Made by a program: the position numbers and the translations under genes
The notes under the pieces: generated by a model
What the model was told of the DNA's origin: nothing
Seen by the model: only the letters and a program-made list of their open reading frames with translations
Databases searched by the model: none
NCBI RefSeq assembly: GCF_014280195.1
Contig: NZ_CP047960.1
Coordinates: 600,001 to 632,000, forward strand
DNA: 32,000 nt
Source of the DNA: Synechococcus sp. A15-24
Lineage (GTDB): Bacteria > Cyanobacteriota > Cyanobacteriia > PCC-6307 > Cyanobiaceae
Direction of reading: 5' to 3'
Shown here: in pieces, positions 1-32,000 of the stretch
Position numbering within the stretch: position 1 is the first letter of the stretch
Layout of the letters: the number at the start of each line of letters is the position of its first letter

Positions 1-2
1 AA

Positions 3-647
3 AATAGCCATTGGTCCCAACTTTACCACTGGTCTTTTGGTTGGTGGAAATCAGCGGCGGCTCTAGACTGGATTGATTCTTATTGGCACGATTTGCAAAA
101 TGCTTACAATACGAATGAACACTTCGTCTTGAAAGATCCTCGCCTTTGTATTCTGCTCGAGGGCATAATTCCATGCCTAGTTGATTCGCTACTGCAGTTA
201 GATTTTTTGTTGATATTGCGCTCTCCTGTTGAGGTTGTTATGTCCTTGTGTAAGGCAGAGGAAATTTCTCCATACGATGCTCTTAATTTGTGGATCGGAT
301 CAGTATTTCGCGCAGAATGTAGTTCACGTCCGTATTCTCGCAATATTCTCACGTACTACCAGCTCCTTAGTAGGCCACAAACTATTTTGGATTCATTCGG
401 CTTGAACTGGAATCAAAGCTTTATGGAATCCAGGCTTGATCAAGCAACATCCTTTTTAAAGACTTCATTGTATCGAACCAAGGTTGATAACGTAAGGGAA
501 TCGTTCGTGGCAACAAATCCTGAGTTGACTAGTCTTCTTGTTTTGGCTGAACAGATTTTTGATTGTTTTCAACATCCAACCCCAGACATTGCTCGTACAT
601 CAGAGAAATTAAGGTACCAGTGGGTCGAAATCTTGGCAGATCGTTAG
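3..647 (+). CDS. Sulfotransferase-family protein, 5'-partial (the reading frame is open to the left window edge)
   Basis: Manual translation of frame 3 shows no stop from base 3 (NSHWSQLYHWSFGWWKSAAALDWIDSYWHDL...). 'FVLKDPRLCILL' followed by 'LILRSPVEVVMSL' resembles the KDPR...RNPxEVxxSL pattern of bacterial/cyanobacterial sulfotransferase-family proteins. The segment is low GC. Confidence 0.55.
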   Translation, partial: NSHWSQLYHWSFGWWKSAAALDWIDSYWHDLQNAYNTNEHFVLKDPRLCILLEGIIPCLVDSLLQLDFLLILRSPVEVVMSLCKAEEISPYDALNLWIGSVFRAECSSRPYSRNILTYYQLLSRPQTILDSFGLNWNQSFMESRLDQATSFLKTSLYRTKVDNVRESFVATNPELTSLLVLAEQIFDCFQHPTPDIARTSEKLRYQWVEILADR

Positions 648-675
648 CAAACTCTTCTGTAAATAACTTTGCAGC

Positions 676-3024
676 TTACTGTCGCTGATAGTAATCTTTC
701 ATCCTCCTGAAATTGGACCTCAGTTCAATTCCTTGCATAACGCTTTCTGGTGAAGTGTTGAAACTAAAATTTTCATGAATCTTTGTTAGATTTGGATTGT
801 AAAATAAATCACTTGGTAGTTCCCCATTACTTTGAATGTCGTATTGATTTAGCATGAAGTTTATCTCTCTCTTGAACCGTTCTTTCTTCTCGGGAGAGTC
901 CTCAGCTCCGCGGGATATTGATTCGTGGTGAAACAGCTCAGCATACGGGGTGAAAATATTTCGATATCCTCTTCCGTGAACCCTTATGCAAAAGTCGACA
1001 TCGTTAAATGCGATTGTGAGGTCTTGTTCATTGAGGCCGCCGACTTCGTTGAAAATTTCTCTGCGAATTGCGAGACATGCTGCAGTTACTGCTGTCATCT
1101 GTTGTACATATTGAAGCCTGTCGACATAACCAGGACTATCTCCCGGAAAGTATTTATGGGCATGACCGGCGACTTGGCCAATTCCAATAACTACGCCTCC
1201 ATGCTGAATAGTCCCATTTGAATAGTATAACTTTGCACCGACACATCCAACGTCTGGCCTTGAAGTGTGGGAAACAATTTCTTGGAGCCATTCGCCAGAT
1301 ATGACCTCGACATCATTATTGATCAAAGTAACAACATCTGCTTTTGATTGTCGGACTGCATAATTATTGATGGCCGAGTAGTTGAACTTCTTGTTGTATT
1401 TTATTATATTTATTTTTTCGCCATGCGCCCTCTTCAGTTTTTTGAATAGATTCTTCGTGGCGACTTCTTGGCTCTGGTTGTCAACAATTGTGATTGTGTA
1501 GTTCGTGTATGTCGTCTTGGCAATGATTGAATCCACTGCGAGATTCAATACCTCTGCTTGATCTCTAGTGGGGATGATGAGCTCAACAGATGGTGGCTTC
1601 TCTGATGTATGCCACTGGCAGGTGAATCGGTTCCTGGCCTTGATTCGGGCTGTCGCCCTTACGCCTCCACGTCGATGCTGCTCGTCTAGGAAATTCTGGA
1701 CTGCCTTGTGACCGCTTTCAGTTGTGTAATCCTTGCTGTCTGGGTTGCTGGCGGTTGATTCGGAATGTGCTCGCCAGTGGTACAAGACTCTAGGGATGTG
1801 AATAATTTGGTCCGGGGAAGATTCCAGGACAGTTCTGAGTGCAAGATCGTGATCTTGGCTTCCCTCGAAGCCAACTCGGAAGCCACCAATTTGTTTGAGG
1901 ATCTCCCTTCTGTAAACACCCAAGTGTGAGATAAAATTGTATGACAATAAAAGATCAATGTTAAAAGCTGGCTTGAAGTGTGGGCATGAACGCATTCCAT
2001 CGTCGCTGATCTTGTCTTCGTCGCTATAAACTAAATTTGCTTGCGGTTTTTGCTGCAACTCACGTGCAACCCAGTAAAGAGCATTGTCTGCAAGGATGTC
2101 GTCGTGATCTAGTAATGCTACGTATTCTCCTGTCGCCAGACTAAGTGCGTCATTGCTGGCTTCACATATGTGGCCATTCTTTTCGCGAAAGATAAGTTTT
2201 ATTCTAGGGTCTAACGATTGATAGCTCTTGAGGATTGTCTGGACGCTCGCCGCACTGGAGCTGTCATCGCAGATGCAGAGTTCCCAGTTGGGATAGCTTT
2301 GACGGCAGACACTTTCAATGCATTCGCGAAGGTGAATGCTGTTGGTATTGTAGGTAGGAATAACAATGCTGATAAGCGGGGCGTCTTGGTTTAGCTCAAG
2401 CCATTCCCTGATTTGCTCTTCATTGTGGTCGATTTCTGGCTCAATCTCTTTTAGATAGTTCTCATACCTTTCGTCTGTTTCTTTTTTGGTTGGTGTGTCG
2501 AAAGGTGCTTTTGGCCAGGTTTGATGCCTGATCTGAGCCAATCGATAGATCTGTTCCGTTCGCCAAGAAATTTCTTGCGTTATGGAGTACGTCTCTTGCG
2601 CAACTGCGTTGTCGTTTTCCTTGGGTTTTCTTGTTGTCCATTGTCTTAAAACATCTACAAACGTATCTATGGTTGTAGGTAATATTGAAAAGGTCGCATT
2701 GATTGGTCCTTGCCCGCTGATTGGTCTGATCTTGACTCTGCTCCTTTGCAGAACGACGATTGGAAGTACGAGGCACGGTTCTGACCTTGTGCTTTGGGTG
2801 GGCACGGTGAAAGTTCTTGCCAACGATTTGTTGGGCCCAACAGGCTCTATGCAAACGGAGCAAAGTAATGGGCTCTCTTCTGCATTAATTGATAATCGAA
2901 GTAGGTAATATCCTTTGCTTATGCCTTTGCGTGTTTCGAAGTAACAGTCTGCATGTTCGACGTGGTATTCCCCGTTGCCAATTGGTTGTATATTTCTTCT
3001 AACCCAATCCTGACGAAGGGACAT
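676..3024 (-). CDS. Large glycosyltransferase with two tandem GT2 (GT-A) domains and an unassigned ~230-aa N-terminal region; likely a rhamnosyl/polysaccharide transferase
   Basis: There are two GT2 signatures: 'ISIVIPTYNTNSIHLRECIESVCRQSYPNWELCICDDSS...LLDHDD' and 'VELIIPTRDQAEVLNLAVDSIIAKTTYTNYTITIVDNQS...LINNDVE'. I chose the start at ATG 3024 (MSLRQDW) because the longer ORF (to 3090) would overlap the rfbB 3' end. It lies directly downstream of rfbACDB on the same strand. Low GC. Confidence 0.8.
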   Translation of the reverse strand: MSLRQDWVRRNIQPIGNGEYHVEHADCYFETRKGISKGYYLLRLSINAEESPLLCSVCIEPVGPNKSLARTFTVPTQSTRSEPCLVLPIVVLQRSRVKIRPISGQGPINATFSILPTTIDTFVDVLRQWTTRKPKENDNAVAQETYSITQEISWRTEQIYRLAQIRHQTWPKAPFDTPTKKETDERYENYLKEIEPEIDHNEEQIREWLELNQDAPLISIVIPTYNTNSIHLRECIESVCRQSYPNWELCICDDSSSAASVQTILKSYQSLDPRIKLIFREKNGHICEASNDALSLATGEYVALLDHDDILADNALYWVARELQQKPQANLVYSDEDKISDDGMRSCPHFKPAFNIDLLLSYNFISHLGVYRREILKQIGGFRVGFEGSQDHDLALRTVLESSPDQIIHIPRVLYHWRAHSESTASNPDSKDYTTESGHKAVQNFLDEQHRRGGVRATARIKARNRFTCQWHTSEKPPSVELIIPTRDQAEVLNLAVDSIIAKTTYTNYTITIVDNQSQEVATKNLFKKLKRAHGEKINIIKYNKKFNYSAINNYAVRQSKADVVTLINNDVEVISGEWLQEIVSHTSRPDVGCVGAKLYYSNGTIQHGGVVIGIGQVAGHAHKYFPGDSPGYVDRLQYVQQMTAVTAACLAIRREIFNEVGGLNEQDLTIAFNDVDFCIRVHGRGYRNIFTPYAELFHHESISRGAEDSPEKKERFKREINFMLNQYDIQSNGELPSDLFYNPNLTKIHENFSFNTSPESVMQGIELRSNFRRMKDYYQRQ

Positions 3025-3053
3025 GTTTCCTCGGCTTTCTGGTATTTGTTCCA

Positions 3054-4121
3054 CTAGTATTTTTTGTGACCGTAGTGTGCGATGTACCACTGCACGGTCT
3101 TTGCGATGGCTACATCGAAATCATGCCTTGCTTTCCACCCCAGCTCGGTCTCAATACGAGTCGGATCAATGGCATACCGACGGTCGTGGCCGGGACGATC
3201 CGTCACTCGTGTGATCAACCTCGCATGGGGTGCCCCGTCCGGTTTTAGCTGATCCAAGTGGTTGCAGATGCATTCCACGACCTCGCGATTGGTTCGTTCT
3301 CCATAGCCGCCGACGCAGTAACTGCGGCCAGATGCTCCTTTGCAAGCGGCCAGCAGCAGGGCATCGACGTGGTCTTCCACATACAACCAGTCTCTGACGT
3401 TCAATCCATCGCCATACAAGGGAATGGGCTTTCCGGCAGCAGCTTTCAATGTCACGACAGGAATCAACTTTTCGGGAAATTGCCAAGGTCCGTAATTGTT
3501 GGAGCAATTCGTCAACACCACTGGCAATGCATAGGTGTGGTGCCACGCGCTGACGAGATGGTCACTGGCCGCCTTGCTGCTTGAGTATGGACTGCGCGGG
3601 TCATACGGCGTCGTTTCTGAAAAACGCCCCTCTGCGCCCAGGGAGCCGAAGACTTCATCGGTGCTGATGTGATGCAAGCGGAAGTTTTCTTGGCGGTCTC
3701 CGCTCAAGCCCTCGACATGCTCCCGTACCGCCTGCAGCAGGTTGTAGGTCCCAGTCACGTTGCTCTCGATGAACACACCAGGGCCTGCAATTGAGCGGTC
3801 CACATGACTCTCGGCCGCCAGGTGCATCACCAGGTCGGGATCCGCCGCCTTCACCGCCTCACGAACGGCCTTTGCATCCGCGAGGTCCACCCGTTGCAGC
3901 ACATGTCTTTGCTCGGCTCGTTCCCCGAGCTCGCTCAGCACCGCCTCAATCGACGTCAGATCGCTGGCGTAGCCCATCTTGTCGAGGTTGAACACGATCG
4001 CCTCGCTCTCCTTGAGCAGTCGCCGCACCACGGCCCCACCGATAAATCCAGCCCCTCCTGTCACCAGTACCCGCCGCCGGGATCCCAGCAGCTCTGCAGC
4101 AGTCGGCATTGAATCGGTCAT
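3054..4121 (-). CDS. rfbB: dTDP-glucose 4,6-dehydratase
   Basis: 'VLVTGGAGFIGGAVVRRLL', 'HISTDEVFGSL' and 'YSSSKAASDHLV' are typical of RmlB short-chain dehydratases. The start is ambiguous: TTG 4130, ATG 4121 or ATG 4109. Confidence 0.93.
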   Translation of the reverse strand: MTDSMPTAAELLGSRRRVLVTGGAGFIGGAVVRRLLKESEAIVFNLDKMGYASDLTSIEAVLSELGERAEQRHVLQRVDLADAKAVREAVKAADPDLVMHLAAESHVDRSIAGPGVFIESNVTGTYNLLQAVREHVEGLSGDRQENFRLHHISTDEVFGSLGAEGRFSETTPYDPRSPYSSSKAASDHLVSAWHHTYALPVVLTNCSNNYGPWQFPEKLIPVVTLKAAAGKPIPLYGDGLNVRDWLYVEDHVDALLLAACKGASGRSYCVGGYGERTNREVVECICNHLDQLKPDGAPHARLITRVTDRPGHDRRYAIDPTRIETELGWKARHDFDVAIAKTVQWYIAHYGHKKY

Positions 4122-4126
4122 CGGGA

Positions 4127-5035
4127 TCAAGGGTTCGTGGGGATGGCCTGCAGCACATCCTTAAGGGCTGCCCGCCAGGGCTGGGCCTTCAGTTGCAGCA
4201 CTTGACGGCTGGCCTGGCAATCCAATAACGAATAGCCGGGACGGGTGGCTGGGGTTGGATAGTCGGAGGTGCTGATCGGATTCACCGTGGCGGCGCGCTC
4301 TAGCAGGCCAAGGTCCATCGCCAGCTCACCCACCGCGACGGATACGTCGTACCAGCTGGCGGCACCGCCATCACACCAGTGCAGCACAGGGGGGAGTTCC
4401 ACCTCGTCGCGGCTGCTGGTGATCACCGTCCAACAAGCCGTCGCCAAATTCAACGTGCTGCTCGGGCAGCCCACCTGATCGACCACCACCCCCAATTGCT
4501 CTCTCTCTCGATGCAGTCGCAGCATCGTGAGCGCAAAGTTTTTGCCCATCGGACCCATCACCCAGCTGGTGCGCAGCACCACACCTTGGCCACTGGCCCC
4601 AAAAAGCTCTTCCACCGCCTCCTCTCCGCTGGCCTTGCTGGCGCCGTAGACCCCCAGGGGATCGCGGCTTTGATCCACCCGGTAAGGGGAGCCCTGCTGA
4701 CCGTTGAATACAAAGTCGGTGCTTAGCTGCAGCATGCGGCCGCCGTGTGCCTGGATCGCTTCTGCAAAAGCCCGTGGTGCTCCTCCATTCACGGCATGGG
4801 CCAGCTCCGGTTCCGCTTCTGCCTTGTCCACTGCGGTGTAGGCCCCGGCATTCAGCACCCAATCGGGGCGCTGTTCCTCCACCAACTGTCGGCATGCCGC
4901 TGCATCAGCCAGATCGAGTGCCACCAAGCCATTGCCGCCATTGCGGCTGCTCGCCACCAGTTCAATGCCTTCAGGCAACCTTCCAACCAGGGCCTGCCCA
5001 AGCTGTCCCGCGGCACCGGTGACCAACACTCTCAT
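4127..5035 (-). CDS. rfbD: dTDP-4-dehydrorhamnose reductase
   Basis: '[16 protein letters not shown]', 'STDFVFNG' and 'YGASKASGE' match the RmlD pattern. Operon context with rfbA/C/B. Confidence 0.9.
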   Translation of the reverse strand: MRVLVTGAAGQLGQALVGRLPEGIELVASSRNGGNGLVALDLADAAACRQLVEEQRPDWVLNAGAYTAVDKAEAEPELAHAVNGGAPRAFAEAIQAHGGRMLQLSTDFVFNGQQGSPYRVDQSRDPLGVYGASKASGEEAVEELFGASGQGVVLRTSWVMGPMGKNFALTMLRLHREREQLGVVVDQVGCPSSTLNLATACWTVITSSRDEVELPPVLHWCDGGAASWYDVSVAVGELAMDLGLLERAATVNPISTSDYPTPATRPGYSLLDCQASRQVLQLKAQPWRAALKDVLQAIPTNP

Positions 5036-26290: not shown

Positions 26291-27388
26291 GTGTCCGATC
26301 CCAGGGACCTTCAGCTGAGCAGCTACGACTTTCGGCTTCCGCACGAGCGCATCGCCCAGGTACCAGCCGAGCCACGCCACAGTGCCCGTTTGTTGATGGT
26401 GCCCCCGGCGACGCAAGCCCTCGAGGCTGCCCGGCATGGGGTGGTCTGGGATCTGCTGGAGGAGTTGCAACCCGGCGACCTTCTGGTGGTGAACGACACC
26501 CGTGTGCTCAAGGCACGGTTGAAGGTGCGTCGCTCCGGTGGTGGGTTGTCGGAGCTGTTGGTGCTCGAGCCCCGCGGTGAGGGGCGTTGGCTCTGCCTGG
26601 CGCGGCCGGCGAAACGCATGCGGCCCGGCGACGTGCTGACGATTGATGGCACGTCCATCGGCCTGACGGTGTTGGCGGACGACGCAGCCAGTGGCGGGCG
26701 TTTGGTTCAGTTCCCGACGGACTGCCGTGATGCGGAGACGATCGAAACGCTGCTGAATCAGTGGGGCGAGGTTCCGCTCCCCCCTTACATCGACCGGCAT
26801 GAACCCGACGATGTCGAGCGCTATCAGACTCGCTACGCCGATCGACCGGGAGCCGTTGCGGCTCCGACGGCGGGCCTGCATTTCAGCGATGAACTGCTAG
26901 CAGGCCTCCAGCGCAAAGGAGTCGAGCTGGCCAGGATCACCCTGCATGTGGGACTGGGCACCTTCCGTCCTTTGGAGACGGATGATCTGACCAAACTGGA
27001 GCTTCACAGTGAGTGGATCGAGGTGAGTGCGGCGGTGGTGGAGGCCATTCAGCGATGTCGCGGCCGTGTGATTGCCGTGGGTACCACCAGTGTGAGGGCC
27101 CTGGAGGGTGCGGCTCAACACAACGGTGGAGTGCTCCAACCCTTCACCGGGCCCGTCAACCTTGTGATTCAACCGGGCTATCGCTTTACGGTGGTACAAG
27201 GCCTGATCACCAACTTCCACCTCCCGAAAAGCTCGCTGTTGTTGTTGGTCAGTGCGCTTATCGGACGAGAAAAATTGTTGCGGTTGTATGCCGAGGCGGT
27301 TCGAGAGCAGTATCGATTTTTTTCTTACGGAGATGCGATGTGGATTGCGCCAGAAGCAGTGCTGCTGTCGGCTCAGTTGTCGCCGTAG
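26291..27388 (+). CDS. queA: S-adenosylmethionine:tRNA ribosyltransferase-isomerase
   Basis: '[12 protein letters not shown]', 'LLVVNDTRV', 'LPPYI', 'YQTRYA...[12 protein letters not shown]', 'GTTSVRALE', '[17 protein letters not shown]' and '[10 protein letters not shown]' are QueA motifs. GTG start. Confidence 0.93.
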
Positions 27389-28020
27389 ATCGGGTCCAAC
27401 CAAGAAATATCAAGAGGGTCAATATGGAGGAAGGCCGGCTGAATCATCAATTTTTTTTCTTTAACTGCAGTGTGAATCGATTCGCTTGATTCCATCAAAG
27501 ATTTGGATGTGATAACGGCATGTTGGAGACAGGCATCGGCGTAGGAGTCGTCGTTATCGATGTCGATGCCGTGGTTGGTTAGTCCAAGCTTTATGTCGCT
27601 AACGAGCTCTGTTAATGAAGCTGAGAACATCTGTTCTTTGAGAAATGCTGCTTTTACTGCACCGCAACCTTGATGACTCATCACAAGGAGGACACGAACA
27701 TTGAGATCAAGAACGGCGTACTCTATCGATCCAGCCGCTCCAAAAGTGTTTGTATTTCCTGCATTGCGGATCACAAAGAGATCTCCGAAACCTGCATCGA
27801 AGATCACTTCAACCGGAACTCTTGAATCAGAACATGCCAGTAAAGCGACTTGTGGGTGCTGCCCCCCCGCAAGTTCGTGACGACGTGCTTGAGTTGCATG
27901 GGGGTGGTGAGAACTATTGTTCAAGAAGCGACCAAAACCGCGTTTTAATTCTTCAATGATCTCAGTCGGATCACTTAATTTTTGATCTGAATTAGAATCT
28001 ACGTAATCTGATTTGGTCAT
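27373..28020 (-). CDS. Beta-class carbonic anhydrase
   Basis: Zinc ligand motifs '[30 protein letters not shown]' (CxDxR) and '[10 protein letters not shown]' (HxxC). Low GC. The 3' end overlaps the queA 3' end by 16 nt (convergent). Confidence 0.88.
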
Positions 28021-28151
28021 TAGGTTAACTTCGCTATCTATTTCATCATCGCCAAAATCGATAAAAGGGAAGGTTTTGGTCAGCGAACCCTGACATTTTT
28101 GCGGGACATTCCCAAACTTTTCGTCATAATAAAATTACATATGAAAGATCG
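28021..28151. promoter_or_regulatory. AT-rich divergent intergenic region, presumed bidirectional promoter region for the carbonic anhydrase and the transporter operon
   Basis: A 131-bp non-coding gap between divergent ATGs. A -10-like 'cataat' lies at 28125-28130, 22 nt upstream of the 28152 ATG. I could not identify a convincing -35 element or a known operator. Confidence 0.3.
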
Positions 28152-29561
28152 ATGATCTCCAGTCTTGCAAATCTGTTGATTTTAGCTTTTACAAAGCCAG
28201 CTGCGGAAGTTGAGACTGCTGGTGAAATTCTTCAAAGCTTACCTGCTCTCCACTTTTCCTTTCCTGCGGCACTCCTATCGCTCTCTTTGCTGATACTGGT
28301 CAGCATCTTGTTTGAAAAACTTGGCGTCAAGCTTGGCATCCCGGGATCCATTTTCTTATTTTTTGCCGGTCTTTTTTCCCATGTTTCGGGGTTTAGTTTT
28401 GAATCTTTTCCGATAGAAGAACTTCATGTTGTAGCTTTATGCATTTTATTGTTCTTCAGCGGGCTTTCTTTTGATCGTTCGCTTTTGAGGGAAAGTAAAG
28501 TTCTAGCTAGCTCTATAAATTTGGCTTTATTCGGAACATTGCTGAGCATGTTGTTTTGGCTTTTTTATTTGTTGATAGGATTTGGTTTTTTTCAGAGTGC
28601 TTTTGGCTATTTAGAGGGAGTAAATCAAGAATTGATCAGTCTGGTAGTAGTTTCTGTAATTTTTTGCATTGCGGTACAAGATTGGAATTCTTTTATGTTT
28701 GTTTCCAAAAGAATAAAAGATTTCCGATCAACTTTGTCTAACATATTTAAAATAGAAACTGCCATATCAGCCTCAATTTCAGTGGCAATTGCTGAAATTC
28801 TTGTCCTTATTTGGCTCGCTATTCATCCTGAATATCAGTTTATGGGTAGTTCGCAGATGTTTATATCGATTTTCCAGGGAATATTGGTTGGATCAGTTGC
28901 AGGAATAGTCCTCGGTTACCTTTTGATGCTAACGATTCGTCATGTAATTACTTCCAAACCTCAGCTTGTTTTAGTTGCTGTTGCGTTCACTCTAATTGGT
29001 TACGTGGTATCTTTTTCAATCACGCACCAGGGCGGATATCTTTGTGCGCTAGTGATGGGTATTGTTACTTCTCTGGCTTACCGAAAAAGCTCAACCGATG
29101 AAGAAATAGAATTTCTCGCAGAAGAATTGGAAACTCTCAATATCGCTTCTGAAGCGATCCTCTTCTTTGCGATTGGTCTTGGACTTGAGGCCACTTCCTT
29201 TATTGCTCATCTGCCAGTGGCGATCTACGTCTGGCTTGGAATCATCATTATCAGGCCAATTACAGTCAACCTCTTTTTCAAAGGCTCTGCCGCAAAGCCG
29301 GAAGAACGTCAGCTGTTGTCGCTGTGGAGTCCGAAGGGTGCTATTTCAATGGCTTTAGCTGTTACAGCACCAGAACTGCTGGAGGGAACTTTCGGTCTCG
29401 AGATTGCTGAAATTTTTCCAGAAAATGCTTTTAACTTCTCAGCGGATATTGTTTGCGGCGCCGTATTACTTTCGATGATCATTAAATCCTTGGCGATTCC
29501 AAAAATGCATTCCCAACTTATTGGAAATCAAAAAATTGTCTCAATAAACCAAGAGGTCTGA
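28152..29561 (+). CDS. Divergent cation:proton antiporter (CPA / Na_H_Exchanger)-fold membrane protein
   Basis: About 11-13 hydrophobic segments. 'KLGVKLGIPGSIFLFFAGLF' and 'LHVVALCILLFFSGLSFD' resemble the first two conserved CPA helices (LGxPxxxGxLLAG, LLFxxGLEL), and 'WSPKGAISMALA' resembles the late (P)RG(E/L)VSxxLA motif. Low GC. Confidence 0.7.
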   Translation: MISSLANLLILAFTKPAAEVETAGEILQSLPALHFSFPAALLSLSLLILVSILFEKLGVKLGIPGSIFLFFAGLFSHVSGFSFESFPIEELHVVALCILLFFSGLSFDRSLLRESKVLASSINLALFGTLLSMLFWLFYLLIGFGFFQSAFGYLEGVNQELISLVVVSVIFCIAVQDWNSFMFVSKRIKDFRSTLSNIFKIETAISASISVAIAEILVLIWLAIHPEYQFMGSSQMFISIFQGILVGSVAGIVLGYLLMLTIRHVITSKPQLVLVAVAFTLIGYVVSFSITHQGGYLCALVMGIVTSLAYRKSSTDEEIEFLAEELETLNIASEAILFFAIGLGLEATSFIAHLPVAIYVWLGIIIIRPITVNLFFKGSAAKPEERQLLSLWSPKGAISMALAVTAPELLEGTFGLEIAEIFPENAFNFSADIVCGAVLLSMIIKSLAIPKMHSQLIGNQKIVSINQEV

Positions 29562-29564
29562 ATT

Positions 29565-30227
29565 ATGTTGAAAAGAAAGTTGACTGACCGATACCGACTC
29601 TTACGGGCTCTTTTGGTTGGAGCCGTGGTGAGTGTCCTCTTTTCGCCAGTCTTGGCAACTAAGGAAGTGATTACTGTTGCGATCACATTTTCGCTTTTAC
29701 TTGACTTTTTGATCTTGATCAAGCAGTCATGGCTAATTGGAATCAATGAAACGAGGGAAATCTTTCAGCAATTCAATGCCAAAGAGTCCTCTGTTGCTGT
29801 GAGGACTATAGCCCTTGTCTTCCTAAGTGTAGGTATCTTGAGTTTTTGTATTGCCGAACTGCATTCCAAGAATGATGTTTTGCCAAATAGCCTTCACATC
29901 TTTATAAGTTTCATTGCTCTTTTTTTAACCTGGTTTCAGCTGCACAATGGGTTTGCACTCTACTACGCGAAGAAGTACTTTGACATGAACCCGGATGTTC
30001 TTGTTGAATCCGAGGATCAAAAAGGATTTGTATTTGAAGGGGCAGAGCCTACATTTAGCGATTTTTTGTACATATCTTATTCAATAGGCCTTACCTATTC
30101 AATGACTGATTGTGGTATTAAGGATTCTTCCGTCAGGCGTGTTGTCATTATTCACTGTCTTTCATCATTTCTGTTTGCCTCAACAGTCCTCTCTATCATA
30201 TTTTCATTGGCAACTAAAGTGAGTTGA
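29565..30227 (+). CDS. DUF1345-family membrane protein
   Basis: 'WFQLHNGFALYYAKKYF...GFVFEGAEPTFSDFLYISYSIGLTYSMTDCGIKDSSVRRVVIIHCLSSFLF' matches the DUF1345 core as I recall it (FALHYA...F.G...P.Y.DFLYFSF.IG.T...SDV...R...L.H). It starts 3 nt after the transporter stop, with AAGAGG 8 nt upstream. Confidence 0.72.
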   Translation: MLKRKLTDRYRLLRALLVGAVVSVLFSPVLATKEVITVAITFSLLLDFLILIKQSWLIGINETREIFQQFNAKESSVAVRTIALVFLSVGILSFCIAELHSKNDVLPNSLHIFISFIALFLTWFQLHNGFALYYAKKYFDMNPDVLVESEDQKGFVFEGAEPTFSDFLYISYSIGLTYSMTDCGIKDSSVRRVVIIHCLSSFLFASTVLSIIFSLATKVS

Positions 30228-30257
30228 CGTGTGAGGGACCAGCCCGGCGCACGTCAA
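30224..30257 (+). terminator. Stem-loop (8-bp perfect inverted repeat TTGACGTG-N18-CACGTCAA) overlapping the DUF1345 stop, followed by a T-rich tract
   Basis: ttgacgtg (30224-30231) and cacgtcaa (30250-30257) are exact reverse complements, and the downstream sequence is 'tttgtgtgcatttgc'. The 18-nt GC-rich loop is long for an intrinsic terminator, so this could instead be a protein-binding palindrome. Confidence 0.35.
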
Positions 30258-30355
30258 TTTGTGTGCATTTGCAATCATTTCGGAGGGTTGCTGTAATGAG
30301 CACTTCCCAAAAACCAGATCATCTTTAAAATTCTGCTGATGAACCAAATTTTGTC

Positions 30356-30658
30356 ATGTTTGAACTCGAGTATCTCGTTGCCTTTGGCTTGGGCGCTGGG
30401 CTCGTCGCACTTACTCCTGTTGTAGCAGCTGCTGCCGGGAAAGAAAGTTCCATCACGAAATCTGTTGCAGGTGCTGGCCGCGGCCTTACAAAACAAGGCC
30501 TTAAGGTCGGCCTCTTCGTGGGTGGCAAGGTGTCTGGACTCTTTTCTGGCGTAAAGTCTGGCATTAATGAAGTTGGTGAAAGCTTCGGCGACATCCTTGC
30601 TGAAGCCAAAGCCGACATGGCGGCACCGAAAACCAAAACCGCATCACCAAAGGCTTAA
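30356..30658 (+). CDS. Small Gly/Ala-rich membrane-associated protein with a glycine-zipper repeat (DUF5132-like)
   Basis: N-terminal hydrophobic segment 'YLVAFGLGAGLVALTPVVAAAAG'. Gly falls at residues 48, 52, 56, 57, 61, 65, 69, 74 and 78 (GxxxG periodicity). The C-terminal 'EVGESFGDILAEAKADM' resembles my recollection of the DUF5132 consensus. The antisense ORFs here are judged artefacts. Confidence 0.6.
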   Translation: MFELEYLVAFGLGAGLVALTPVVAAAAGKESSITKSVAGAGRGLTKQGLKVGLFVGGKVSGLFSGVKSGINEVGESFGDILAEAKADMAAPKTKTASPKA

Positions 30659-30661
30659 GGC

Positions 30662-31102
30662 TTGCGAGTTACAGTTAAACACCGTATTTTTGGGCGCGTA
30701 AGATTTTGTTGGCAAAAAAAATTAACATTCTATGACATGCATTTCATGGAATGTTCATTTTTTTTTGTGTTTCCCACATGTCGTTTTCGACCGGTTTCGG
30801 GCAATTCTGGTTGTGTGATCCATTTTGATGAAGCTGCTGATCATTCACTCTTTTCTCAGATCACTACGTGGATAGGTGATTTCTTAGCAATTGGCAATTG
30901 TCAGGGACCCTTGCTTCCACCGTCCAAGACGGATTTATTGATCGATAAGGCTAAAGGTTGGACAGCTCAGTCCATGATCGTAATAGCAATACTTGGCTGG
31001 ATTCTTCCAATTCTTCCAGGAACACCTTTTTTCTTACTAGCTTGGTGGCTTGGTTGGAGACCAGTATCGTCAACTGAGCTGTCAGTTGTGACTGAACCAT
31101 AG
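30662..31102 (+). CDS. HMA2/CoBaHMA-like domain fused to a truncated DUF454 (YbaN)-like membrane hairpin
   Basis: 'VKHRIFGRVRFCW' resembles the H-x-x-P-G-R-x-R-f strand of HMA_2/CoBaHMA domains, with Pro replaced by Phe. 'PVSGNSGCVIHFDE' resembles the '..tgSllI.yd' strand. The C-terminal 'ILGWILPILPGTPFFLLAWWLGWRPVSS' resembles the DUF454 start (LP.LPTTPFLLLAA..F.RSS). A TTG start lies 3 nt after the preceding stop. Confidence 0.55.
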   Translation: MRVTVKHRIFGRVRFCWQKKLTFYDMHFMECSFFFVFPTCRFRPVSGNSGCVIHFDEAADHSLFSQITTWIGDFLAIGNCQGPLLPPSKTDLLIDKAKGWTAQSMIVIAILGWILPILPGTPFFLLAWWLGWRPVSSTELSVVTEP

Positions 31103-32000
31103 AGTAAGCCATCCTAGAGCGATTTGAGCACGCTCACATTGCTTGGAAACGAACTCTGTTGGCAATGCAATACTTCGGCAATACCCATTGAATATCAAAT
31201 GTATGCTTGCGTCGACTTGTTCGATTTTTAAATTAGCCTTTGTCACACCCGGCAAGAATATTTTTGCGCAAAGTTTCTCTGTATCCCACTCCTCGATGCG
31301 ATTGCTTGCTCTCTTCTCATCATTTGTTTTGGCTTCTTCAACTAAAGCGGGAACTGCGATTGATTTGTTGATCATTATTGGTCCCTGTCGGCATTCATTC
31401 TCGAGTTCAACATTGGCTTCAGTACTTGCCTCCTCGACTATTAGAATATGAGGTATTGCACGGTGCATTCCAGCAATGCTAAGCCGATTCCTTAGCTGCG
31501 CAGGCTTGTAGTTCTTGCCGTCAAGAATTAATGTGAAATGATGATTGCTACGATCAGAGATCGTTTTTTGTAGGAGATGTAAGCGGCTTTTCCAGGCGTC
31601 GTTAAGACGCAACTGTTGTGACGAGGGCAAGCGTAGGCGTAGTATTTTTTCGACTGTCGAGAGTGTTTGGCGCGTTTTGTCCCACCAGTTGAGCAACGGC
31701 TCAAGCAATTGGTCGATCAAGGCTGGACCCTTTTGCGCCATGCCCAGGATTTTCAGTGCATGCAATGGCGTTGGCAGGATTGCGATCAAAATTGTCCCCA
31801 TTTGAGCACTCTCCAGTGCTTCTGAGAAGAAGATTAATTTGGTTAAATCTTCGATTCCAGGTATTGGAGGGAGCTCGGTTGATTGTTTAGAGGCAATGTC
31901 GAGCAGTTGCCACCACTCACTAGCGTGAGGATTGAGCTGCTTCCAAAGCTGCTTGAGAACACTGATATGGTCGAAGTATTGAATAATACAATTGTTGCTC
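31082..32000 (-). CDS. Get3/ArsA-family-like protein with a C-terminal HSP20/alpha-crystallin-like domain, 5'-partial (the frame is open to the right window edge)
   Basis: Manual translation upstream of Met-31801 shows no stop up to base 31999. 'IPGIEDLTKLIFF...ILIAILPTPLHALKIL' aligns with the ArsA 'PGxDE...yDvivvDtAPTGHTLRLL' region but is degenerate. The C-terminal 'KIFLPGVTKANLKIEQVDASIHLIFNGYCRSIALPTEF...ERAQIALGWLTLWF' matches the HSP20-like tail of cyanobacterial/plastid ArsA homologues. Confidence 0.6.
   Translation of the reverse strand, partial: SNNCIIQYFDHISVLKQLWKQLNPHASEWWQLLDIASKQSTELPPIPGIEDLTKLIFFSEALESAQMGTILIAILPTPLHALKILGMAQKGPALIDQLLEPLLNWWDKTRQTLSTVEKILRLRLPSSQQLRLNDAWKSRLHLLQKTISDRSNHHFTLILDGKNYKPAQLRNRLSIAGMHRAIPHILIVEEASTEANVELENECRQGPIMINKSIAVPALVEEAKTNDEKRASNRIEEWDTEKLCAKIFLPGVTKANLKIEQVDASIHLIFNGYCRSIALPTEFVSKQCERAQIALGWLTLWFSHN

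Follow-up and report, generated by a model that had tools for sequence, protein, structure and literature searches.

The genome of Synechococcus sp. A15-24 (contig NZ_CP047960.1) raises the question of what six adjacent genes of low G + C (GC) content do together. They lie at the right end of the 32,000-nucleotide stretch analysed here (positions 600,001 to 632,000 of the forward strand; hereafter the window) and encode a beta-carbonic anhydrase, a cation/proton antiporter of the CPA superfamily, a DUF1345 membrane protein, a small glycine-zipper protein (Gz1), a membrane hairpin protein (hp1), and a Get3d-like protein. The initial annotation of the window regarded them as a candidate undescribed membrane system that handles inorganic carbon and cations, possibly in connection with carbonate. 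Here we report that they make up the left half of a cluster of 12-13 genes that is conserved in picocyanobacteria, and that many freshwater versions of this cluster contain a calcyanin-like gene. We read the cluster, with a probability of about 0.55, as the machinery for an enveloped intracellular cation-carbonate store, of which the window would hold a marine version without calcyanin.

Extent and conservation of the cluster

All six open reading frames were confirmed (27373-32000). The GC content falls from 0.645 (window positions 4000-27000) to 0.429 (27400-32000), and the step lies directly 3' of queA. The initial annotation was correct in that all six genes exist and are low in GC; they represent only half of the unit, and the core of the cluster, a P1B-type ATPase and its dead paralog, is encoded outside the window. 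The low-GC block continues for approximately 7 kb past the window end, as read from 10 marine contigs that carry the continuation with 88% DNA identity to the window. This part contains the full Get3-like gene, a paralog of Gz1 (Gz2) encoded just past the window end, a P-type ATPase, a second hairpin protein (hp2), an ATPase-like protein of 696 amino acids (aa), a GDT1-family transporter, and a 175-aa protein (p175). The marine gene order is queA / carbonic anhydrase - CPA - DUF1345 - Gz1 - hp1 - Get3d-like - Gz2 - P1B ATPase - hp2 - dead ATPase paralog - GDT1 - p175 / cysK.

Related loci were collected with a homolog search for hp1 and a scan of one genome per species, after which all loci were mapped with tblastn. 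The hp1 family was found almost only in picocyanobacteria (a marine Synechococcus single-cell genome, Cyanobium, Vulcanococcus, Synechococcus UW140, and metagenome-assembled genomes (MAGs) from lakes). The same gene order was present in approximately 30 independent picocyanobacterial loci, with protein identities of 25-45%: (DUF1345) - carbonic anhydrase - (X) - Gz1 - hp1 - Get3-like (opposite strand) - Gz2 - ATPase - hp2 - dead ATPase - (DUF1345 or CPA) - p175, where parentheses mark genes that are not always present and X is the calcyanin-like gene described below. The carbonic anhydrase adjoins the cluster in 26 of the 29 loci that cover that side, and the GDT1 gene does so in the marine loci.

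Comparison with the 88%-identical marine relative (locus L001) yielded ratios of nonsynonymous to synonymous substitution rates (dN/dS) of 0-0.25 for all six window genes, which indicates purifying selection; for Gz1, dN was 0. An identical Gz1 protein was found in 89 blocks of marine metagenome assemblies, including those of TARA. With a gene order shared by approximately 30 loci and with purifying selection, the arrangement is far beyond chance. The block for which the initial annotation had proposed a neighbourhood search was thus recovered as a conserved one, and random island cargo, which had been named as the alternative, was rejected on the basis of conserved synteny.

The marine clusters have a GC content of 0.43-0.46 versus 0.57-0.64 for their flanks, and the freshwater clusters have approximately 0.64, the same as their hosts. 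The marine copies are approximately 20 GC points below the host and all occupy a single site (L001, L014, L018, L019), with queA at the border in each of these four loci. Because its GC content is so far below that of the flanks, the marine form looks horizontally acquired, though at one conserved site (queA / cluster / cysK). Between marine lineages, sequence identity is 34% for hp1, 41% for the Get3-like protein, and 76% for the ATPase, compared with 82% for queA and 94% for cysK. No relatives of the cluster were found in the viral contigs searched, an Rfam scan of three full clusters yielded no family and no riboswitch, and a promoter scan gave a signal at chance level.

The calcyanin-like gene and the encoded proteins

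In 18 loci, a gene encoding a protein of 289-351 aa (gene X) is located between the carbonic anhydrase and Gz1. Its N-terminus bears a His...RxRxR signature, and three glycine-zipper repeats are present. When eight sequences were aligned, the invariant positions included the His and two Arg of the signature, the GEEAG start and AGPxGA centre of repeat 2, and W242 and E253 of repeat 3; repeat 1 has a Gly-Pro in five of the eight. Repeat 2 matched positions 45-81 of the PdsO model TIGR03789 in all five sequences tested (E 7e-7 to 0.014). Calcyanin, the product of ccyA and marker of intracellular amorphous calcium carbonate (iACC), is described as a protein of 264-375 aa with three GlyZip repeats of approximately 50 aa and a central Gly-Pro (PMC8890360); its repeat 3 contains a Trp and a Glu, its repeat 2 matches PdsO, and its W-type is the CoBaHMA type (Benzerara et al. 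2022, PMC8890360). The product of gene X agrees with this description in every feature that could be checked and appears to be calcyanin-like. A reverse metagenome search seeded with gene X led to the same cluster in 19 of 19 loci. The connection to calcyanin and carbonate drawn in the initial annotation is supported by synteny in these freshwater relatives, where the calcyanin-like gene has the carbonic anhydrase on one side and the DUF5132 gene on the other.

The cluster also resembles published neighbourhoods of ccyA. In Microcystis PCC 7806, the neighbours of ccyA are two DUF5132 genes, a CoBaHMA gene with a C-terminal DUF454 domain, a further CoBaHMA gene, and cax, and ccyA is co-expressed with genes for NhaP-type, UPF0016 (GDT1 family), and Ca-ATPase proteins (10.1101/2024.07.07.602159). 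On the megaplasmid of Fischerella NIES-4106, ccyA is close to a Ca/H exchanger, two cation ATPases, and a carbonic anhydrase. Shared with the cluster are two DUF5132 copies, a carbonic anhydrase, and transport proteins of two kinds (cation/H+ exchangers and cation ATPases), besides the calcyanin-like gene inside the orthologous freshwater picocyanobacterial cluster. The hairpin proteins of the cluster would add a CoBaHMA domain fused to a DUF454-type hairpin, and further CoBaHMA proteins, to the common features. Parts of the composition have therefore been described near ccyA, and the system is not wholly undescribed as had been suggested, since the DUF5132 and CoBaHMA-DUF454 genes were already reported beside ccyA in Microcystis. 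The cluster differs from these neighbourhoods in its antiporters, which are NhaP-like CPA and GDT1 proteins instead of Cax, and in the window and all marine copies, which are without the calcyanin-like gene. The calcyanin literature searched describes neither the picocyanobacterial cluster nor, around ccyA, its fixed module of a P1B ATPase with a dead paralog and a Get3d-like protein. Among marine strains, Synechococcus RS9917 is known to form iACC and has a calcyanin of the CoBaHMA type.

Four calls of the initial annotation (carbonic anhydrase, CPA fold, DUF1345, and DUF5132) scored above the respective Pfam cutoffs (Table 1). The carbonic anhydrase of the window has the motifs CSDSR and HQGCG, which provide the zinc ligands and the catalytic dyad, and it has no hydrophobic segment. 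All 22 cluster carbonic anhydrases compared share the corresponding motifs, CxDxR and HxxCG, and thus have intact active-site residues. The NCBIfam model nearest to the antiporter is the K+/H+ antiporter PRK05326, which matched with 57 bits, far under its cutoff of 355, and equivalog level was not reached. Orthologs of the antiporter occupy the same position in the marine loci and the opposite end in five freshwater clusters (34-36% identity). The N-terminal hydrophobic helix of Gz1 agrees with the description of the DUF5132 proteins of Microcystis.

The hp1 protein had been interpreted as an HMA2/CoBaHMA-like domain on a membrane hairpin. Pfam and NCBIfam scans gave no HMA_2 (PF19991) match for hp1 of the window; HMA_2 matched 3 of 31 hp1 homologs, all with E of at least 0.17. 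The DUF454 profile (PF04304), also suggested initially, stayed below its cutoff (27.4 versus 35.1 bits) and covered only the hairpin (profile positions 10-39 of 115), a part that was matched in 31 of 31 homologs. In the alignment of the 31 hp1 sequences, H7, R12, and R14 are invariant and the motif GWxLPILPGTPFFLxAWWLGWRP is kept. An AlphaFold 2 (AF2) model (predicted local distance difference test score, pLDDT, 82) has the order b0-b1-a1-b2-b3-a2, with no b4, followed by a long and a short helix parted by PGTP, and hydropathy analysis gave one hydrophobic stretch of 30 residues. With hhalign, the hp1 alignment matched the N-terminus of the calcyanin-like proteins with 94% probability and the Pfam-validated HMA_2 domains of related cyanobacterial clusters with 50% probability (70 columns, with the His and RxR aligned). 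A related Phormidium cluster encodes a true HMA_2+DUF454 protein, of which the hairpin alone was aligned with hp1. A Foldseek search of the PDB with the N-terminal domain gave nothing significant, and a profile search with the hp1 alignment retrieved the same family only, with no Microcystis or fez relatives among the matches listed. From the signature residues, the predicted topology, and the weak profile-profile similarity, the CoBaHMA assignment of the N-terminal domain is plausible, not proven.

Each arm of the hairpin is too short for a bilayer, and hp1 would therefore have a monotopic or monolayer anchor. The hp1 and Get3-like genes converge, and their 3' ends share 21 nt (31082-31102). 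Gene finders called hp1 on only 1 of the 10 marine contigs (as a 118-aa protein on L008), yet the gene is conserved in more than 200 protein clusters.

The cluster ATPase (844 aa), encoded just outside the window, is of the P1B type (TIGR01525, 449 bits; cutoff 346), and its DKTGT, TGES, and GDGIND motifs are intact and present in all orthologs. The 696-aa paralog is catalytically dead: DKTGT and TGES are missing in 18 of 18 orthologs. In place of the motifs D[Y/F]SCA and HNxxT of the ferrosome pump FezB, the cluster pumps have FDLG[T/S]G and (L/F)LNNGS[C/A]. Membership in FezB/P1B-6 was rejected because these signature motifs are absent. At the aligned membrane site, IDYACP in transmembrane segment 4 of a related Cereibacter ATPase corresponds to FDLGTG in the cyanobacterial pumps, and HNGST in segment 6 corresponds to NNGS[C/A]; overall, Cys is replaced by Thr and His by Asn.

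The last of the six genes had been described as encoding a Get3/ArsA-like protein with an HSP20-like tail. The tail is supported by the ArsA_HSP20 model, which reached its cutoff (Table 1). PF02374 (ArsA_ATPase) did not match the protein of the window or that of L001, and a Walker A motif was present in 0 of 14 orthologs; an active Get3/ArsA ATPase was rejected on this ground. The window contains the 3' 306 codons of the gene, in a frame that is open to the window end, and the full protein has 362 aa in L001. A profile of the 14 orthologs matched the Get3d proteins All4481 of Nostoc (3igf/8egk; E 4.9e-11) and At1g26090 of Arabidopsis (8elf; E 5e-5), mainly in the alpha-crystallin domain and weakly in the core. 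The C-terminal alpha-crystallin/HSP20 domain is common to the cluster protein and Get3d, and the differences are the missing Walker A motif and the location of the gene amid transporter and envelope genes. Because the gene converges on and overlaps hp1, and the hp1 product would be C-terminally anchored, the arrangement suggests that the protein is a holdase or targeting factor for the hairpin proteins.

A proposed cation-carbonate store and its alternatives

From this gene content we infer an ion, a location, a role for each part, and a mineral product as follows. The intact P1B ATPase would pump a hard divalent cation, most likely Ca2+, from the cytosol into a compartment, and the dead paralog may work jointly with it. 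The soluble beta-carbonic anhydrase would speed the interconversion of CO2 and HCO3- beside the compartment. Because carbonate precipitation releases H+, the NhaP-like antiporter, GDT1, and perhaps DUF1345 would balance protons and counter-ions. The two Gz proteins and the two CoBaHMA-hairpin proteins would form or shape the envelope, with a basic patch that binds anionic lipid and a short, proline-kinked hairpin that sits in one leaflet or in a monolayer. The P-loop-less Get3d-like protein with its alpha-crystallin domain would shield the C-terminally anchored hairpin proteins and deliver them. Since the marine form is without calcyanin, it may make a different or calcyanin-independent store.

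The formation of iACC costs energy and has so far been tied to a single marker gene of unknown function. In the cluster, this marker is joined by a carbonic anhydrase, a P-type pump and proton antiporters, as well as by envelope-type proteins and a chaperone for tail anchors, which is a testable list of parts, and its calcyanin-less marine form is common in ocean metagenome assemblies. If the marine form stores carbonate of Ca, Sr, or Ba, or another cation, this would bear on the cycling of alkaline-earth metals and carbonate by picocyanobacteria. A bolder version of the proposal, which we regard as possible and put forward tentatively, is that the abundant Synechococcus of the open ocean carry a calcyanin-independent iACC machinery with a ferrosome-like, envelope-bounded compartment, in which a new subgroup of P1B pumps, with a metal site changed from Cys/His to Thr/Asn, imports Ca (Sr, Ba), a dedicated carbonic anhydrase and proton antiporters drive carbonate precipitation, and ferrosomes and iACC granules share an organelle toolkit. 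If this were true, these ATPases would be the energy-driven pump for Ca (Sr, Ba) that has long been sought for iACC formation, and ferrosomes and iACC granules would be linked through shared building blocks.

Several points weigh against a carbonate store. A tblastn search with four calcyanin-like queries found no such gene in the window or at any of the marine loci, and calcyanin is the sole validated iACC marker. Five freshwater loci are also without the gene, and in a compact variant of the cluster it is present without a carbonic anhydrase. The calcyanin-like call was made from published descriptions; all database copies of the protein are named 'hypothetical protein', and a profile search with the calcyanin-like alignment retrieved 50 unnamed relatives and reached no reference calcyanin. 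The Thr and Asn residues in the pump site would fit a harder cation such as Ca2+, a choice that depends on two motif positions, and P1B pumps are not known to transport Ca2+. A free carbonic anhydrase in the cytosol is expected to harm the cyanobacterial CO2-concentrating mechanism.

The cluster could instead be an island for ion and pH homeostasis at the plasma or thylakoid membrane (under salt, alkalinity, or Ca/Mn stress), with no compartment and no mineral. Four or five of the genes encode transporters or putative transporters, the marine copies form a low-GC island at one site, as adaptive cargo would, and calcyanin is absent from the marine form. We consider this explanation unlikely, for it leaves the calcyanin-like gene of the orthologous cluster unexplained, as well as six conserved non-transport partners (two Gz, two hairpin, the dead ATPase, and the P-loop-less Get3d-like protein) in a fixed order at 25-45% identity. 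A further alternative is a ferrosome-type Fe/Mn organelle, in which the P1B ATPase, like FezB, loads a transition metal into a lipid-bounded compartment, with accessory roles for the antiporters and the carbonic anhydrase. In fez clusters, an R-rich P1B-6 ATPase (FezB) and an R-rich HMA protein with two transmembrane helices (FezC) are encoded together with GxxxG proteins, a chaperone-like protein, and in some cases FezH, a second ATPase (10.1101/2020.01.10.902569). The parallel is close: both have a P1B ATPase with an R-rich, N-terminal HMA-type domain, several GxxxG or glycine-zipper membrane proteins, a soluble protein of chaperone type, and a further ATPase that is divergent, and the hairpin proteins would correspond to the small HMA protein with two hydrophobic helices. 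It extends to Cereibacter pORIO2, where a cluster in iron context (FeoA, glycine-zipper proteins, a P1B ATPase, and an HMA2 protein between TonB receptors) encodes a related ATPase (30% identity) that can be aligned with the cluster pumps across the metal site in the membrane. Transport of Mn2+ is within the range of GDT1-family proteins, which would also suit such an organelle. The cluster pumps, however, have the hard ligands Thr and Asn in place of Cys and His and are missing the FezB motifs, and in approximately 45 picocyanobacterial loci mapped there are no FeoA, Fur, TonB, or ferritin-like genes, whereas carbonic anhydrase and the calcyanin-like gene recur. Ferrosomes are, moreover, reported mainly from anaerobes (10.1101/2020.01.10.902569), and the hosts of the cluster are oxygenic phototrophs. 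A transition-metal organelle is for these reasons clearly improbable.

Carbonic anhydrase is coupled genetically to transport in the DabAB and SulP-CA pairs, and the initial annotation had compared the locus with these systems. As an explanation, carbonic anhydrase and antiporter would together carry out vectorial uptake of CO2 or bicarbonate for the CO2-concentrating mechanism, and the intact beta-carbonic anhydrase does adjoin the cation/proton antiporter in the marine form. The comparison holds as far as the linkage of a carbonic anhydrase to membrane transporters is concerned; it fails in that the constant neighbour of the carbonic anhydrase is ccyA or Gz1 and not the antiporter, which in freshwater clusters is at the far end or absent. 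The enzyme is a plain soluble beta-carbonic anhydrase and not a DabA-type subunit, no homologs of DabA/DabB or SulP were found by profile scan or in the locus map, and the rest of the cluster contains no genes of the type involved in the CO2-concentrating mechanism, so that vectorial uptake is very improbable. It is equally improbable that the marine form is what remains of a decaying ccyA cluster, or that it is selfish cargo of the island with no present function. The missing ccyA, the foreign GC content, and cluster proteins far more divergent than the flanks would fit decay, but the open reading frames are intact in the window and in at least 10 marine contigs, dN/dS is low throughout, and Gz1 is identical across DNA of 88% identity and in the metagenome blocks mentioned above.

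Feature coordinates, cluster variants, and neighbouring genes

The features of the window, together with p175 from two other loci, are listed in Table 1. A search of Pfam and NCBIfam gave no match for p175; its N-terminus resembles a small helix-turn-helix, so the protein may be a regulator of the cluster.

Table 1. Features of the cluster in the window and of p175 in loci L001 and L011. Positions are those of the window unless a locus is given.
Feature	Position	Strand	Basis or remark
queA-like core gene	26291..27388	+	Host GC; left island boundary; PF02547 recorded for L001 ortholog
Beta-carbonic anhydrase, 215 aa, soluble	27373..28020	-	PF00484, E 1.4e-30, 107 bits (cutoff 25.7)
CPA-superfamily (NhaP-like) cation/proton antiporter, 469 aa, ~10 hydrophobic segments	28152..29561	+	PF00999, 62.8 bits (cutoff 26.2), residues 47-449
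DUF1345 membrane protein, 220 aa, 5 hydrophobic segments	29565..30227	+	PF07077, 105 bits (cutoff 31.8)
Gz1, 100 aa, N-terminal glycine-zipper (GxxxG) membrane helix and DUF5132 helix	30356..30658	+	PF17195, 28.1 bits (cutoff 25), residues 61-90
hp1, 146 aa, TTG start, putative CoBaHMA-like N-terminal domain and 30-aa hydrophobic hairpin split by PILPGTP	30662..31102	+	Homolog alignment, AF2 model
Get3d/ArsA-fold protein with C-terminal HSP20 (alpha-crystallin) domain	31082..32000	-	ArsA_HSP20 PF17886, 25.7 bits (cutoff 22.5)
p175, conserved soluble protein, ~170 aa	L001 12888-13415; L011 17649-18194		Ends almost every cluster variant

Freshwater clusters are bordered by genes of two-component regulators (L011 2662-4636 and 18821-19585; L012), and a GDT1 gene is located 2-4 kb upstream of the cluster in L011 and L027; these genes may be part of an extended unit. 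Contigs from MAGs labelled 'uncultured proteobacterium' and 'uncultured Klebsiella sp.' (L018, L038, L039) carry picocyanobacterial clusters together with picocyanobacterial flanks and are probably mis-binned or mislabelled.

The compact variant mentioned above (L040, L054, L073-L076; partly low in GC) is arranged as p161 - DUF1345 - calcyanin-like - Gz - ATPase - hp (121 aa) - dead ATPase - Get3-like. Its calcyanin-like protein is also filed under Synechococcus sp. UW140. Since the cluster without ccyA occurs in MAGs of the same name, two paralogous clusters may be present in one lineage.

Simpler modules are present in other cyanobacteria, namely Phormidium LEGE 05292, a plasmid of Gloeothece PCC 7822, and plasmids of Nostoc flagelliforme (L048 2374-10089; L052; L053). 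They combine a P1B ATPase with HMA_2 domain with DUF5132, HMA2, and DUF454 proteins, and some add DUF1345, DUF1269, or an HMA_2-EcsC fusion. The module on the Gloeothece plasmid encodes an ATPase of 42% identity with DUF1345, DUF5132, and HMA2 proteins; the DUF1345 gene, which is nearly universal among the cluster variants, adjoins the related ATPase there. The core toolkit is therefore wider than the picocyanobacteria. Searches of PLSDB with the calcyanin-like protein, the HMA_2+DUF454 protein, and the carbonic anhydrase gave no plasmid that bears calcyanin.

A second low-GC stretch (0.41-0.49) is present at the opposite end of the window (1-5035). It contains an 804-aa open reading frame for a multi-domain glycosyltransferase (676-3090, minus strand), which adjoins dTDP-sugar (rfbB/rfbD-like) genes, and is probably a cell-surface polysaccharide island unrelated to the cluster.

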